Source: Escherichia phage P818
Reading direction: 5' to 3' (one strand)
Sequence record: ON062054.1
DNA length: 49,175 bases
Numbering within the stretch: position 1 is the first letter of the stretch; each line of letters begins with the position of its first letter. Under the pieces are notes generated by a model. That model was not told where the DNA came from. It searched no databases and was given only the letters and a program-made list of their open reading frames with translations. The translations under genes were made by a program, and so were the position numbers. Positions 1,183 to 44,589 of this stretch are shown here, piece by piece.

Positions 1183-1244
1183 TATATATACCTTTGTTTA
1201 CTTCGTTTGATTTACGGTGATTATAGCAAATCACCGCGTTAGTG

Positions 1245-1261
1245 TTTAGCAAAAAGTGCTA
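1245..1261 (-). promoter_or_regulatory. Dyad motif copy 1 (TAGCA-N5-TGCTA family), upstream of erf/ssb
   Basis: Minus-sense TAGCACTTTTTGCTAAAC overlapping the exonuclease stop; 21 bp then TATAAT (1220-1225) inside a hairpin, then CAAACGAAG box and RBS. Confidence 0.6.
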
Positions 1262-2299
1262 CGCTTCCAGAATGTGCTTGAACTGCTTTTTAATCCAATC
1301 AGGAGTCTCAAGCTCAATCTCTGGTTCGCCGTTGCTGTATGAAGGCCATACGTCATTCGCTTCGCACATTGAGAAAGTATGAATAACGCTCATGTACTGC
1401 GCGCGACCAATCTTAAGCTGATCGCCACTCATCCGGTATGCCATCGGCAAGTAAGGCTCTTTCTTCTCCTGGGCCAGCAAGCGCACAACAACTGGACGCG
1501 TTTCTTCAAAGCACTTGACGAACAGGTCACGCTGCAATGCCATCTTGAGATAATAGCCAAGGTTGAACGCCAGGCGCGGGAACTCTGTCGGGTTAGCGCT
1601 CATTGTCGTTTTGTAATCAGTGATGACGACAATTTCAGGGTGAACCTCAGGATCGTAACCCATGCGGCGTATTGCTTCTGGATCTTTAATGATGTCAACG
1701 TGGTCAAGACGAACCTTGACTTTTACACCGCAAATCACGCCGAATAAAGAATACTCACGGAATGCAGTCTCACTGTTCATGCAAGCATTATGCTCAGGAA
1801 TCATTTCAAGAACCTGACGCATACTTACGCAAGCATCGTAGTCTTCCGCCTTAACCAGTTCCACGCCATCGGCCCATGCCTGACACTGTGCGATCATATC
1901 AATCAGCCACATCACGTTGAGTTCTTCGCCACAATCAACCATCATTTTGATCAGTTCTGGATATTGCTTTCCGCTTGTACCAGTCAGGCCAAATGATTTT
2001 AATTTCGTTGCCAATGCTGCCTGGCTTGTGATTACGTTCTTAATCTCGCTTTCTTTCGGTGCTCGGCGATACTGGCGCTCAAACAGTTCTTTACTCTCAA
2101 AGTTAGTGTGCGACTGCGTACCGAAGACCATCGCTTTAGTCGTCGAGTTCATTTCAAACTTCCACGCCGCAGGGCAAGTACTGTGGATCTTGCTGAGTGA
2201 CGAGCCTGATACATACTCGGCGGTCCACTCATCTTTGCTGTGGTAAAAGTCGTTGCTCATTTCTTCTGACGTGAAGTATTGAAACAGTGGCTTGGTCAT
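1259..2299 (-). CDS. Putative recombination exonuclease
   Basis: 346 aa; first gene of exo-erf-ssb operon; assignment mainly by synteny, weakly by sequence. Confidence 0.5.
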   Translation of the reverse strand: MTKPLFQYFTSEEMSNDFYHSKDEWTAEYVSGSSLSKIHSTCPAAWKFEMNSTTKAMVFGTQSHTNFESKELFERQYRRAPKESEIKNVITSQAALATKLKSFGLTGTSGKQYPELIKMMVDCGEELNVMWLIDMIAQCQAWADGVELVKAEDYDACVSMRQVLEMIPEHNACMNSETAFREYSLFGVICGVKVKVRLDHVDIIKDPEAIRRMGYDPEVHPEIVVITDYKTTMSANPTEFPRLAFNLGYYLKMALQRDLFVKCFEETRPVVVRLLAQEKKEPYLPMAYRMSGDQLKIGRAQYMSVIHTFSMCEANDVWPSYSNGEPEIELETPDWIKKQFKHILEA

Positions 2300-2755: not shown

Positions 2756-2776
2756 AATGGCACGTTTTGCTAAAGA
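2756..2776 (+). promoter_or_regulatory. Dyad motif copy 2 (degenerate: AATGGCAC-N4-TTGCTAAAG)
   Basis: 22 bp downstream is TATATT (2795-2800); upstream of the 2911 gene. Confidence 0.45.

Positions 2777-3573: not shown

Positions 3574-3579
<6 letters not shown>
2911..3579 (+). CDS. Hypothetical protein (possible regulatory or DNA-binding)
   Basis: 222 aa ORF with RBS; coiled-coil-rich C-terminal half; no confident family assignment. Confidence 0.5.
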
Positions 3580-3891
<312 letters not shown>

Positions 3892-26019: not shown

Positions 26020-26074
26020 TTCTGCTTCCTCGTTCGTTTCGATGGGGTAACTATACAGCTACCCCGATTATGAG

Positions 26075-26093
26075 TTTTAACAAAAAGTGCTAT
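26075..26093 (-). promoter_or_regulatory. Dyad motif copy 4
   Basis: Minus-sense TAGCACTTTTTGTTAAAA overlapping upstream stop; 22 bp then TATAGT inside a hairpin, then TACCCCATCGAAACGAA box. Confidence 0.6.
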
Positions 26094-26818: not shown

Positions 26819-26874
26819 CTTTCTTTCCTCTCGTTTGGTATGAGCTAACTATAACAAAACCCGCCGGGGCGGGT

Positions 26875-26894
26875 TTAGCAATTCGTGCTATTTA
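26875..26894 (-). promoter_or_regulatory. Dyad motif copy 5
   Basis: Minus-sense TAA-ATAGCACGAATTGCTAAA, then terminator-like hairpin CCCGCCCCGGCGGG plus T-run in the 22-bp spacer, then TATAGT. Confidence 0.6.
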
Positions 26895-28232: not shown

Positions 28233-28253
28233 TTTTAATAAATCGTGCTATTT
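28233..28253 (-). promoter_or_regulatory. Dyad motif copy 6
   Basis: Minus-sense AAATAGCACGATTTATTAAAA overlapping stop; 23 bp then TATAAT. Confidence 0.55.
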
Positions 28254-28657: not shown

Positions 28658-28676
28658 TTTTAACAAAAAGTGCTAT
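28658..28676 (-). promoter_or_regulatory. Dyad motif copy 7
   Basis: Minus-sense AATAGCACTTTTTGTTAAA overlapping stop; 22 bp then TATAGT inside hairpin GGAGAC...GTCTCC. Confidence 0.6.
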
Positions 28677-29459: not shown

Positions 29460-29527
29460 TTGTTAATCCTCTGTGATTGGTTGCCTCTGCTTCAATAAGG
29501 CAACTATATCAAATGGCCTTGCGGAAG

Positions 29528-29548
29528 GTTTAGCAAAAAGTGCTATTT
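29528..29548 (-). promoter_or_regulatory. Dyad motif copy 8
   Basis: Minus-sense AAATAGCACTTTTTGCTAAAC; 22 bp then TATAGT. Confidence 0.6.
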
Positions 29549-30010: not shown

Positions 30011-30217
30011 TCATTGCTTCTCCGCCTCGTCAGCCGCCAGGATTAACGCCGCCGCTAACTTGCGGGCCGCGTCAGGTGAATATTGCATAAGTGTTTGGCC
30101 GTCGCCGTAGTCGTCAGGATCGAAGTCCAGGTTTACAATATGCCCGCGAACGGTTCCCATCGTGACACTGACCTCAGCTTGGTCAAAGTGAACATCGTCA
30201 ATACGTACAGTTTCCAT
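30011..30217 (-). CDS. Acidic small protein
   Basis: 68 aa (start at METVRIDD, 7 nt after GAGGAA); about 14 Asp/Glu versus 5 basic. Confidence 0.5.
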   Translation of the reverse strand: METVRIDDVHFDQAEVSVTMGTVRGHIVNLDFDPDDYGDGQTLMQYSPDAARKLAAALILAADEAEKQ

Positions 30218-30272
30218 AATCATTTCCTCTTCGTTGTTGATAGGGTAATCATAGCTGACTACCCGATTTATT

Positions 30273-30292
30273 GTTTAGCAATTCGTGCTATT
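30273..30292 (-). promoter_or_regulatory. Dyad motif copy 9
   Basis: Minus-sense AATAGCACGAATTGCTAAAC overlapping stop; 22 bp then TATGAT then TACCCTATCAACAACGAAG box. Confidence 0.6.
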
Positions 30293-30512
30293 GCGAACGA
30301 TTGCGAACGATTTCGAATTTAGCCATTATGACGCCAAGGCTTTTTATCATAAGAGCTTCACCTATCGTCTTCACTATGTACTCATTGCCATCAACCTTGA
30401 TGTAGTATGAGCCATTAAAACAAGGTATTGGCTTAGCCACGTATATCCCGCCATTTACAACTGAAAGGTTGTGGTGATTTGCTTGCCTTACATACACACA
30501 TTTTATAAGCAT
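30288..30512 (-). CDS. Hypothetical small protein
   Basis: 74 aa; 1-nt overlap with upstream gene; 3' end contains a tandem 10-bp duplication. Confidence 0.5.
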   Translation of the reverse strand: MLIKCVYVRQANHHNLSVVNGGIYVAKPIPCFNGSYYIKVDGNEYIVKTIGEALMIKSLGVIMAKFEIVRNRSQ

Positions 30513-31078
30513 TAATATTCACCGTTCAGGAGAGATTTCGCTTTCCGGTAGAACTGGATGGCCTTCTCCACCTCATCGGCATCATAGCCATGAATCATGT
30601 CTGAGCTTGCCTGCAATTTGCTATGAGATTTGCGCTCAACCGATCTCCATGAGTCGCACCACTTGTGAATGTCTCTCCCATACATGCCCACCAGGTATGG
30701 GTGTGCATATATCTTGTCACCAATAAGGCAAATGATTCCCGCGTCCTGTAGTGATGGTAGGATATTGTCAATCAGGTTATTCATTACTCCATTACGCTCG
30801 ACGAACGGCTGGACCTTTCTGATCGCCTCATATGTTGAGCGAACTCCCACAACGCCTTTTCCATTTATCGTTTGCTTCCAGATCTTTTCAACCACGACGC
30901 ATTGTTCACGACTTAGGTTTGCGCGACGCATAACTTCCACTTCGCACCAGTACTTTTGTGACTGTCGGTATCCGTTAGCATTGATTGCTACTCGTAGTGG
31001 TGGAAGCCCATCTTCCGTAGCAATCTTCATAATCTGCTCATCTGTCAGCTTCTCTTCGTTAAAATCAAACATCCCCAT
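30512..31078 (-). CDS. Internally deleted paralog of the 34720-36303 replication ATPase
   Basis: 188 aa; N-terminus and a later block nearly identical in protein to the 527-aa protein; central Walker A/B region absent. Confidence 0.6.
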   Translation of the reverse strand: MGMFDFNEEKLTDEQIMKIATEDGLPPLRVAINANGYRQSQKYWCEVEVMRRANLSREQCVVVEKIWKQTINGKGVVGVRSTYEAIRKVQPFVERNGVMNNLIDNILPSLQDAGIICLIGDKIYAHPYLVGMYGRDIHKWCDSWRSVERKSHSKLQASSDMIHGYDADEVEKAIQFYRKAKSLLNGEY

Positions 31079-31669: not shown

Positions 31670-31888
31670 GTGTTATCAGTGCAAATTTTCTGAATAGTTA
31701 CAGATTTATGCCAATTTCGCCATATATAGCTAAATGTAAAGTCTGCGTACAGTTTGTAGATAAAGATTTTTAGCAAATTGGCCCCTACATGCCTTTTTAT
31801 TCCTACAATGTCGTCATATTCCTACAAGTGTAGGAAAATATCATAGAAAACTATCGCAATATCACATATCAACCATCTACATTATCTA

Positions 31889-32000
31889 CATATATATATA
31901 TTAATAATAATAATATAGATAAATGGTTATTATATAAGGATATTTTAATGTAACCATGGCGTAATTAAGCGTGATGTGCGTACATGATTCCCACGGAGTG
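31889..32000. repeat. Control-region element, copy B
   Basis: (TA)n plus (ATA)n tract followed by GATATTTTAATGTAACCATGGCGTAA; about 70% identical to 2586-2690. Confidence 0.6.
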
Positions 32001-32116
32001 ATGGCGTGTCTACATGGCATAACATAAATAACGCGTATGCGATGAAATCGTGTGGCGGAAAATCCTACCAGGCGATCAGGGGATCAGATCTCACCCCATC
32101 ATTCCCCCCATAAATG

Positions 32117-32215
32117 AATCATTGCTCAATTCGCAACAATCGAAAACATCATTGCAATAGATGCAATATTGCTATATGTGCAATAGTCATGAGAATCATT
32201 GCAATAGCTGCAACA
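32117..32215. repeat. Iteron-like cluster (ATCATTGCAATAG-type repeats)
   Basis: At least four direct copies of TCATTGC(A/T)(A/C)A(A/T)T(A/C)G within about 100 bp, just upstream of motif copy 10. Confidence 0.55.
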
Positions 32216-32231
32216 ATCCATAAATCGAACG

Positions 32232-32249
32232 AATAGCACTTTTTGCTAA
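32232..32249 (+). promoter_or_regulatory. Dyad motif copy 10
   Basis: AATAGCACTTTTTGCTAA; 23 bp then TATTGT then TACCTCATCGAAACGAAGGAG and ATG at 32301. Confidence 0.55.
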
Positions 32250-32300
32250 TGACCGATCAGGTGTGATTCGCTATTGTTACCTCATCGAAACGAAGGAGAT

Positions 32301-32735
32301 ATGAAGATGAAGAACGGCGTAATTTACAAGCACAGTGACGGAACTACTCGGTTCGTCACGACCTCAGGCCGGATGTATATTTGGGCTTACGGAGCCTGGC
32401 GGTTCAAGGTACAGATGCATGAGGCGACGTATAATATGTTCCTCCGCGCTGCACGACTCAAAGATAACAAGGTGTTCGTTGCGAAGAGTCGCAAGGTATT
32501 CATGGATAATCGCGTCGCGTTCGATCCTATTGACTACCAGGCGGTTGAGTTCACTGGTCTAAGGTTGAGTAAAATTCGGTTGTTGCGCAGCGAACAGATT
32601 GCAATGATTCAGCAAAATTCGGCTATTGCGCACGCCACGGAAGCACGACATCGCCTCCTGACTGGTTATCAGCCCATCATCACGCCGACGCCGTTTTACG
32701 TGCATAAGCAACGACCACCGAAAATCCATAAATAG
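32301..32735 (+). CDS. Hypothetical early protein
   Basis: 144 aa; start refined to ATG after AAGGAG RBS. Confidence 0.55.
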   Translation: MKMKNGVIYKHSDGTTRFVTTSGRMYIWAYGAWRFKVQMHEATYNMFLRAARLKDNKVFVAKSRKVFMDNRVAFDPIDYQAVEFTGLRLSKIRLLRSEQIAMIQQNSAIAHATEARHRLLTGYQPIITPTPFYVHKQRPPKIHK

Positions 32736-32749
32736 CACTAATTGCTAAA
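32730..32749 (+). promoter_or_regulatory. Dyad motif copy 11
   Basis: AAATAGCACTAATTGCTAAA overlapping stop TAG; hairpin in spacer; CATAAT; CATCGAAACGAAG box. Confidence 0.6.
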
Positions 32750-32813
32750 CGAAGCCTCACGGATTGAGGCATAATCATTTCATCGAAACGAAGTACACAA
32801 AGAGGAAGTAAAA

Positions 32814-33663: not shown

Positions 33664-34229
33664 ATAGAAAAAGAAGTCCAGACGGAAAATTTTCTGGTGA
33701 TCCGCTACTACCTGGAGGTTTTCATAATTGCAACTCATGCGGAATTAAAAAGGAGGCTGACGATAAAAACTTTAGAACAATAAATAAAGGAAAAACATGC
33801 GAGAGCCTAAGCAAAACTTGCAGAAAATGCGAGTATCAAAAAGGAAAGGATAAACACGCAAGGAACATGAAAAACCCTGAATTTGCAGATGCTAGAAGGG
33901 AAAGGTGCAGGAACTGGAGGAGCAACAACAGAAGTAAGGTGGCGCTTAAAAATTATCAAGCAATAGATAAAAAGAAAGGACTTACATGCACCATGACAAT
34001 TGATGATGTTGAGGAGTTGCAGTCAATGCCATGCTACTATTGCGGAGATACGGATCGGGTTGGTGCTGACAGGATTGACAACTCACTTGCTCACACGCGC
34101 AAAAACTGCCTTCCATGTTGCCCTGATTGTAATATCTGTAGGAGTAACACTTTTTCAGTTGATGAGATGATGGTGATAGGCAAAGCGATAAGACTCGTAA
34201 AGAAATCAAGAAATAGCACGAATTGCTAA
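33660..34229 (+). CDS. HNH-type endonuclease / zinc-finger protein
   Basis: 189 aa; multiple CxxC pairs and RIDNSLAHTRKNCLPCCPDCN motif. Confidence 0.6.
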   Translation: MNRKRSPDGKFSGDPLLPGGFHNCNSCGIKKEADDKNFRTINKGKTCESLSKTCRKCEYQKGKDKHARNMKNPEFADARRERCRNWRSNNRSKVALKNYQAIDKKKGLTCTMTIDDVEELQSMPCYYCGDTDRVGADRIDNSLAHTRKNCLPCCPDCNICRSNTFSVDEMMVIGKAIRLVKKSRNSTNC

Positions 34230-34230
34230 A
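34211..34230 (+). promoter_or_regulatory. Dyad motif copy 12
   Basis: AAATAGCACGAATTGCTAAA (translated as NSTNC-stop); terminator hairpin in 22-bp spacer; TATATT; CATCCCATCGAAACGAA box. Confidence 0.6.
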
Positions 34231-34294
34231 GCCCTTCGGGGCTTTTCCTGTATATTCATCCCATCGAAACGAAACACACTAAAGGAAAATAATC

Positions 34295-38216: not shown

Positions 38217-38267
38217 GATTGAATCCTCTGTAAGTGAGATATGAATATAGCGCCATATAGGCGCTAT

Positions 38268-38289
38268 GTTTTAACAAAAAGTGCTATTT
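38268..38289 (-). promoter_or_regulatory. Dyad motif copy 13
   Basis: Minus-sense TAA-ATAGCACTTTTTGTTAAAAC; hairpin AGCGCC...GGCGCT in 22-bp spacer; TATATT. Confidence 0.6.
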
Positions 38290-40702: not shown

Positions 40703-40757
40703 GATGATTCCTCGTCTCGTTGGTATGAAAGAAGTATACCCGCGCGGTGGCGGGTAT

Positions 40758-40777
40758 GTTTAGCAATTCGTGCTATT
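40758..40777 (-). promoter_or_regulatory. Dyad motif copy 14
   Basis: Minus-sense TAA-TAGCACGAATTGCTAAAC; hairpin CCCGCCACCGCGCGGG in 22-bp spacer; TATACT. Confidence 0.6.
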
Positions 40778-42007: not shown

Positions 42008-42071
42008 TTTGTTTTCCTTGGTTGGTTACTTCGTTTCGATGAGGTGATAATACACAACCTCACCGATTCGC

Positions 42072-42092
42072 CTTTAGCAATTAGTGCTATTT
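42072..42092 (-). promoter_or_regulatory. Dyad motif copy 15
   Basis: Minus-sense AAATAGCACTAATTGCTAAAG overlapping stop; 22 bp then TATTAT in hairpin; CACCTCATCGAAACGAAG box. Confidence 0.6.
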
Positions 42093-44569: not shown

Positions 44570-44589
44570 GTTTAACAAAAAGTGCTATT
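44570..44589 (-). promoter_or_regulatory. Dyad motif copy 16 (shared by divergent helicase and HTH promoters)
   Basis: Minus-sense AATAGCACTTTTTGTTAAAC; 21 bp then TATTAT (44546-44551), 44-nt leader to helicase ATG; same site lies after the predicted start of the plus-strand promoter. Confidence 0.6.

Follow-up and report, generated by a model that had tools for sequence, protein, structure and literature searches.

The window analysed here is a stretch of 49,175 nucleotides from Escherichia phage P818 (sequence record ON062054.1), a T1-like siphophage of the Drexlerviridae whose nearest relatives are the Nouzillyvirus phages p111, P817, PH1062 and TH21. The phage collection holds no near-identical genome, and the best match, to p111, is 94% over 72% of the query. 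On the minus strand lies a small gene (30288..30512) with a product of 74 aa ending in ...AKFEIVRNRSQ*, the start of which overlaps the stop codon of the gene upstream (TAATG). An exact-sequence look-up finds this product at NCBI as UOX38516.1, a hypothetical protein of Escherichia phage P818, and searches of Pfam and PHROG assigned the 74-aa protein to no family. Variable sites in the gene number 10/7/26 by codon position, an excess at the third position that marks 30288..30512 as a real coding gene, and the gene itself is under purifying selection. Its position makes the suggested role as an early gene plausible. It closes within a recurrent box, ATAGCACGAATTGCTAAAC (30273..30291, minus strand; copy 9 of the motif), that points along transcription and holds two stop codons, the TAG used by the window gene (30288..30290, minus strand) in its ATAGCAC half and a TAA (30275-30277, minus strand) in its GCTAAAC half. 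Exactly 19 nt downstream of the box is a -10-like hexamer, TATGAT (30248..30253, minus strand), which a promoter scan pairs with TAAACA at an 18-nt spacer, and the promoter-like unit made up of box and hexamer serves a second small gene, phrog_13316 (30011..30223, minus strand). This downstream gene has two in-frame ATGs (ATGATTATG, 30215-30229), the second of which (30215-30217) is the likelier start because a GAGGAA ribosome-binding site touches the first ATG directly.

At the junction of the 74-aa gene with the box, direct reading of the plus strand gives two perfect head-to-tail units of 10 nt, ATTGCGAACG twice, at 30290-30309. The unit closest to the box (30290..30299, minus strand; CGTTCGCAAT in gene orientation) shares its last two bases with the box and its first base with the TAG stop, and the second, identical unit (30300..30309, minus strand) is found alike by direct reading, Tandem Repeats Finder and allele comparison. 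An imperfect third copy, ATTTCGAA, directly follows the two perfect units and reaches 30317 (30310..30317, minus strand); in gene orientation it reads TTCGAAAT, which matches TTCGCAAT at 7/8 positions, and it encodes the conserved residues F-E-I and predates the duplication. Across the locus the plus strand is therefore ...GTGCT ATTGCGAACG ATTGCGAACG ATTTCGAA TTTAGCCAT..., and Tandem Repeats Finder describes the array as 30290-30317 with a period of 10, 2.8 copies, 94% matches and the consensus ATTGCGAACG. Direct reading and the program together confirm the original prediction of a 10-bp tandem duplication at the 3' end of a small gene. The repeat is indeed present at 30291-30312, where it had been placed, although the string quoted for it extends to 30317, a minor slip; the codons for the C-terminal RNRSQ that it was said to encode are 30291-30305; and the description of it as abutting motif copy 9 is correct, the repeat in fact overlapping the box (30273-30291, minus strand) by 2 nt.

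Perfect tandem duplications with a period of at least 10 are expected at 0.055 per window, and 5% of dinucleotide-preserving shuffles (n=200) contain any such duplication; from the statistics alone chance is only modestly unlikely, and they do not exclude it. The decisive evidence for a duplication is comparative and comes from relatives whose sequence is the same less exactly one unit. The gene is carried by 51 phage records, and the locus was read in 23 distinct sequences from phage records, IMG/VR and metagenome contigs, and Logan and ENA assemblies, with allele length taken as the stretch from ATGGCTAAATTCGAA (conserved TTCGAA) to the box in gene orientation. This stretch measures 10 nt at 10/23 loci (ATCGTTCGCA in PH1062 and in L016-L023, ATCGTTAGAA in p111), 11 nt at 9/23 (for example ATCGTTCGTGA, ATAGTTCGCAA and ATCGTTCGTTA) and 20 nt at 4/23, where the window and the contigs L013-L015 have ATCGTTCGCA twice. 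The expectation that copy number could vary between isolates, for which a comparison with related genomes had been proposed, has thus proved right: relatives differ, with 10, 11 or 20 nt among the 23 loci, and the locus is not identical in all of them.

Several of the one-unit loci are close enough to the window for the event itself to be read. PH1062 has the window's sequence less exactly one unit; L016 and L022 have one unit ahead of the same downstream module as the window; and in L017 and L018, compared with the window over 263 nt (30272..30534), one 10-nt gap is the sole difference. The window and L017 or L018 form a clean before-and-after pair, in which these two contigs show the state preceding the duplication. 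In one-unit alleles one of the units 30290..30299 and 30300..30309 is missing, the phase being arbitrary within the AAT microhomology. The doubled allele beyond the window was located only through an exact-protein look-up in assemblies, which placed the 74-aa product on three Logan contigs, one from each of the runs SRR31021180, SRR27143230 and SRR31021036, all with identical doubled DNA. Since it is present on three independent assemblies besides the window, the doubled allele is not an artefact. SRR31021175 has one unit, and SRR31021180 and SRR31021036, runs with neighbouring accession numbers, have two.

The duplication also has a direction. Lengths of one unit (10 or 11 nt) are seen in several genera and on gene bodies with as many as 26/207 nt different; every doubled allele has one and the same gene body, is nested among alleles of the 10-nt type that are 0-2 nt away, and shows as yet no difference between its two units. 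The nesting on identical bodies, the wide spread of one-unit lengths and the identity of the two units make doubling the derived state. The contigs that carry it share with the window only short tracts (30177..30534, 30239..30568 and 30273..30534), outside which the flanks are diverged or unrelated, and the tract shared with L015 ends exactly at the box edge. With no linked SNP in these sequences, the doubled allele may have had a single origin and been moved by recombination, or the same slip may have recurred; either would account for its distribution.

The locus very probably carries a derived 10-bp tandem duplication of slippage type, or of the equivalent short-homology recombination, that is at least nearly neutral. 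The progenitor sequence is TTCGAAAT-CG-TTCGCAAT|AGCAC, an 8-mer repeated at a 10-nt period with 7/8 bases matching, and has AAT on either side of CGTTCGC as microhomology. In the starting allele 10 nt separated the conserved ...AAATTCGAA from the box, and the third copy at 30310..30317 is the likely mispairing partner. During replication, the nascent end at the second 8-mer would mispair one period back, and the mispaired strand would recopy CGTTCGCAAT, leaving one extra ATCGTTCGCA in gene orientation, which is exactly the product observed. Recombination between the same short repeats would be an alternative route to an identical product, and it is equally possible because the phage encodes an ERF-family annealing protein. 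The view of the repeat as a footprint of replication slippage is accordingly upheld by the length polymorphism, the period-10 repeat and the AAT..AAT arrangement, in so far as slippage stands for either process, the two being inseparable by sequence. Folding of the one- and two-unit alleles as DNA, on both strands, gave no distinguishing hairpin (z of -0.4 and -0.8 for the doubled allele). In its essentials the locus does not differ from the slipped-strand duplications bounded by microhomology that occur in phage and bacterial genomes, which have the same perfect head-to-tail copies, the same near-identical relatives with one copy, the same pre-existing short direct repeat at the junction and the same small frameshift at a gene end; what is particular here is that the repeat straddles both the stop codon and the upstream edge of the next promoter's box, so that the reading frame decides which of the two stops in the box is used.

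The added 10 nt shift the frame by one base, and the gene product changes from ...EIVRNSTNC* (75 aa) to ...EIVRNRSQ* (74 aa). The stop is relocated within the box, from the TAA of its 3' half (GCTAAAC), which 10-nt alleles reach by read-through, to the TAG in its 5' half (ATAGCAC), which doubled and 11-nt alleles share because 20 = 11 mod 3. The box offers stops in two of the three reading frames, TAG and TAA, and as the three natural spacer lengths use just those two frames the open reading frame still ends within the box. Natural tails beyond the conserved ...EIVR consist of nothing, K, E, NSTNC or NRSQ (0 to 5 residues), a variation from which it follows that the C-terminus is unconstrained. 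On the regulatory side, a tandem duplication reproduces its own flank, and some 60 bp upstream of the next promoter's presumed start are for that reason unchanged; DNA upstream of about -60 has been moved by about one helical turn relative to the promoter-like element. Because the tail varies freely in nature and the promoter-proximal 60 bp are the same in both alleles, the duplication is probably neutral or nearly so. It is an ordinary slippage-type length polymorphism of 10 bp with a trivial coding effect. Taken alone it has little significance, but it can usefully mark strains of the P818 lineage, and it illustrates on a small scale how frameshifts are tolerated at a gene end that lies within the next promoter.

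A more consequential reading would make the duplication a selected, compensatory restoration of frame, in which a loss from 11 to 10 nt was followed by a gain of 10 that led back to TAG, and which may at the same time tune the next promoter. The congruence of the two lengths (both 20 and 11 leave 2 on division by 3) and the common TAG stop of both allele types agree with such a history, the persistence of the doubled allele beside two or more distinct downstream modules and diverged flanks agrees with a selected role, and an insert of about one helical turn at about -51 to -70 of the box/-10 unit is placed where tuning might be expected. However, the 10-nt read-through allele is widespread (10/23 loci) and hence not visibly harmful, its products are found on 10-18 contigs each as against 3 for the doubled allele, and the proximal 60 bp of the promoter are unaltered by construction. 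It is unlikely, then, that the duplication has any importance for the output of the promoter or that selection for a return to the TAG stop brought it about.

The resemblance to phase-variable simple-sequence contingency loci, in which the unit number of a coding tandem repeat likewise alters the frame, raises the idea of a hypermutable locus whose frequent changes in unit number toggle the C-terminus. One gene body does occur in both states, runs that adjoin in accession number differ in state, and recurrent slippage is compatible with data in which no SNP is linked to the doubled allele. The scale is nevertheless different: there are two 10-nt units and two states, which alter only the last 4-5 residues, already free to vary, and do not switch a protein on or off. 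Among the 23 loci the copy-number states are one unit and two units only. When the distance between the box and TTCGAAYTTAGCCAT was allowed to range from 0 to 30 nt, scans returned 3 matches in viral sequences and 1 in metagenome contigs, all of 11 nt and none doubled, and the same anchors gave 0 matches in bacterial genomes, so that no other length emerged from any of the three. The hypothetical products with 0, 3 or 4 units are absent from a collection of 15 billion proteins, which is weak evidence as the look-up finds exact matches only. With the one- and two-unit states alone seen, the locus does not appear to be hypervariable, and a contingency function is very improbable.

It has also to be considered whether the repeat forms a functional array for protein binding, such as an operator, an iteron or a UP-like element, upstream of the promoter. 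A 10-nt period would set the copies on one face of the helix beside a regulatory box, and the window contains the unit 10 times at up to 1 mismatch, compared with 4.6 expected. Against this, the repeat itself accounts for 2 of the 10 matches, the others are scattered inside genes, and 2/100 shuffles also reach 10. A single unit is what most relatives have, it varies in sequence (ATCGTTCGTGA, ATAGTTCGCAA and ATCGTTAGAA among other forms) in the way expected of coding DNA, and the other box copies are without such a repeat upstream. An iteron or operator array was rejected on the grounds that neither the number nor the sequence of the repeats is conserved among relatives, and the probability left to a binding array of any kind is slight. 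An error of sequencing or assembly, or a likeness that arose by chance and not by duplication, has a negligible probability whatever the frequency of such repeats in shuffled windows (about 5% for perfect tandem duplications with a period of at least 10), being refuted by the same doubled DNA in three independent assemblies from different runs and by one-unit counterparts that are otherwise identical in sequence.

The box that the duplication touches is the more noteworthy element of the locus. The box has the general form ATAGCAC-N5-G(C/T)TAAA(N), and its copies in the window lie at 1244-1262(-), 2757-2775(+), 3576-3594(+), 26075-26093(-), 26873-26891(-), 28233-28251(-), 28658-28676(-), 29528-29546(-), 30273-30291(-), 32233-32251(+), 32732-32750(+), 34213-34231(+), 38269-38287(-), 40758-40776(-), 42072-42090(-) and 44570-44588(-). 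These approximately 16 copies have one architecture, in which the box is followed after 19 nt (18-20) by a -10-like hexamer, a leader often containing CATCGAAACGAA, a ribosome-binding site and an ATG, and the promoter-associated copies are all co-oriented with the downstream gene. The same sequence has been described in phage TLS as a 21-nt direct repeat, aaATAGCACnnnTTGnTAAAA, which occurs in T1, Rtp and Rogue1 as well and for which a stoperator, an enhancer site and a UP element were left as candidate functions (PMC11447400). The repeat of TLS and the box of the window correspond in sequence, in their co-orientation with transcription and in their position upstream of start codons; what goes beyond the TLS description is that the window box sits at a fixed 19 nt before the -10 hexamer and fits the consensus for mar/sox/rob sites. 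This consensus is AYnGCACnnWnnRYYAAAY (PMC3709825), to which the copy at 30273..30291 has 0 mismatches, and the window contains 18 matches to it at up to 1 mismatch where 1.05 would be expected.

Class II promoters of MarA, SoxS and Rob follow a set of rules that includes forward orientation of the site, overlap with the -35 region, a position near -41 and a poor -35 hexamer (PMC6900184, PMC12052159, PMC10268841). The window box agrees with them in orientation, in -35 overlap and in a centre near -41, as judged from inferred phage start sites, and it shares with micF, a promoter of this class, the consensus, the forward orientation, the centre near -41, the 19-nt gap and the weak -35. At E. 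coli K-12 micF the box occupies -51..-33 and is followed by 19 nt and TAGAAT, so that its gap equals that of the phage, and the box of the mar operator, ATGCCACGTTTTGCTAAAT, matches the window copy at 2757 at 17/19 positions. The candidate phage sites differ from the chromosomal mar/sox/rob sites in being far closer to the consensus and far more uniform, and from class II promoters in that some copies hold a terminator-like hairpin within the 19-nt gap. A Pfam search found no phage-encoded regulator of the AraC type or resembling MarA, the only DNA-binding match being a weak one of Cro/YdaS-like type, and literature searches found nothing linking MarA, SoxS or Rob with T1-like phages. We tentatively propose that the box may be a class II mar/sox/rob site and that T1-like phages may use the host's Rob, MarA or SoxS to drive about 17 transcription units per genome, a reading of the sequence to which we would give slightly less than an even chance. 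Were it true, it would explain a repeat whose function stayed open in the only description found, it would tie gene expression in T1-like phages to the host's sensing of stress and bile salts, and the 10-bp duplication would become a natural variant in spacing, by one helical turn, just upstream of such a promoter.

The gap between box and -10 hexamer contains a GC-rich hairpin in several copies (26853-26877, 29518-29535, 38250-38268 and 40738-40757), and in one of them the hairpin, CCCGCCCCGGCGGG, is followed by a T run, TTTTGT (about 26855-26872). In these copies the next promoter appears to enclose a terminator-like element of the upstream gene. Leaders 3' of the -10 hexamers have in common, a little ahead of the ribosome-binding site, a conserved CCCATCGAAACGAA-like sequence (26040-26050, 3615-3640, 32280-32295, 32775-32795, 34255-34275 and 42035-42050), which could be the region of transcript start or a common element of the 5' UTR.

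In L002, L005, L010, L011, L015 and L017, homology among relatives is lost precisely at the box's 3' edge (30273); no fewer than four unrelated downstream modules come after an identical box, and numerous BLAST matches go no further than about 30292. The box seems, from these alignments, to be a boundary or junction for the exchange of modules among T1-like phages. Phages of the T4 type have promoter/stem-loop cassettes that are comparable to the box as a junction for exchange.

Farther along the window, the gene-poor divergent region at 31700-32300, between the leftward and rightward gene blocks, contains tandem repeats at 31875-31903 and 32151-32186, ATTGCAATAGATGCAAT in 2.1 copies, and GAATCATTGC...CAACAATC twice, and it could be a control or origin region. 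A direct repeat of 71 nt that begins with (TAA)n is found at 2593-2663 and at 31902-31972 with 80% identity, and both of its copies adjoin divergent or intergenic regions.
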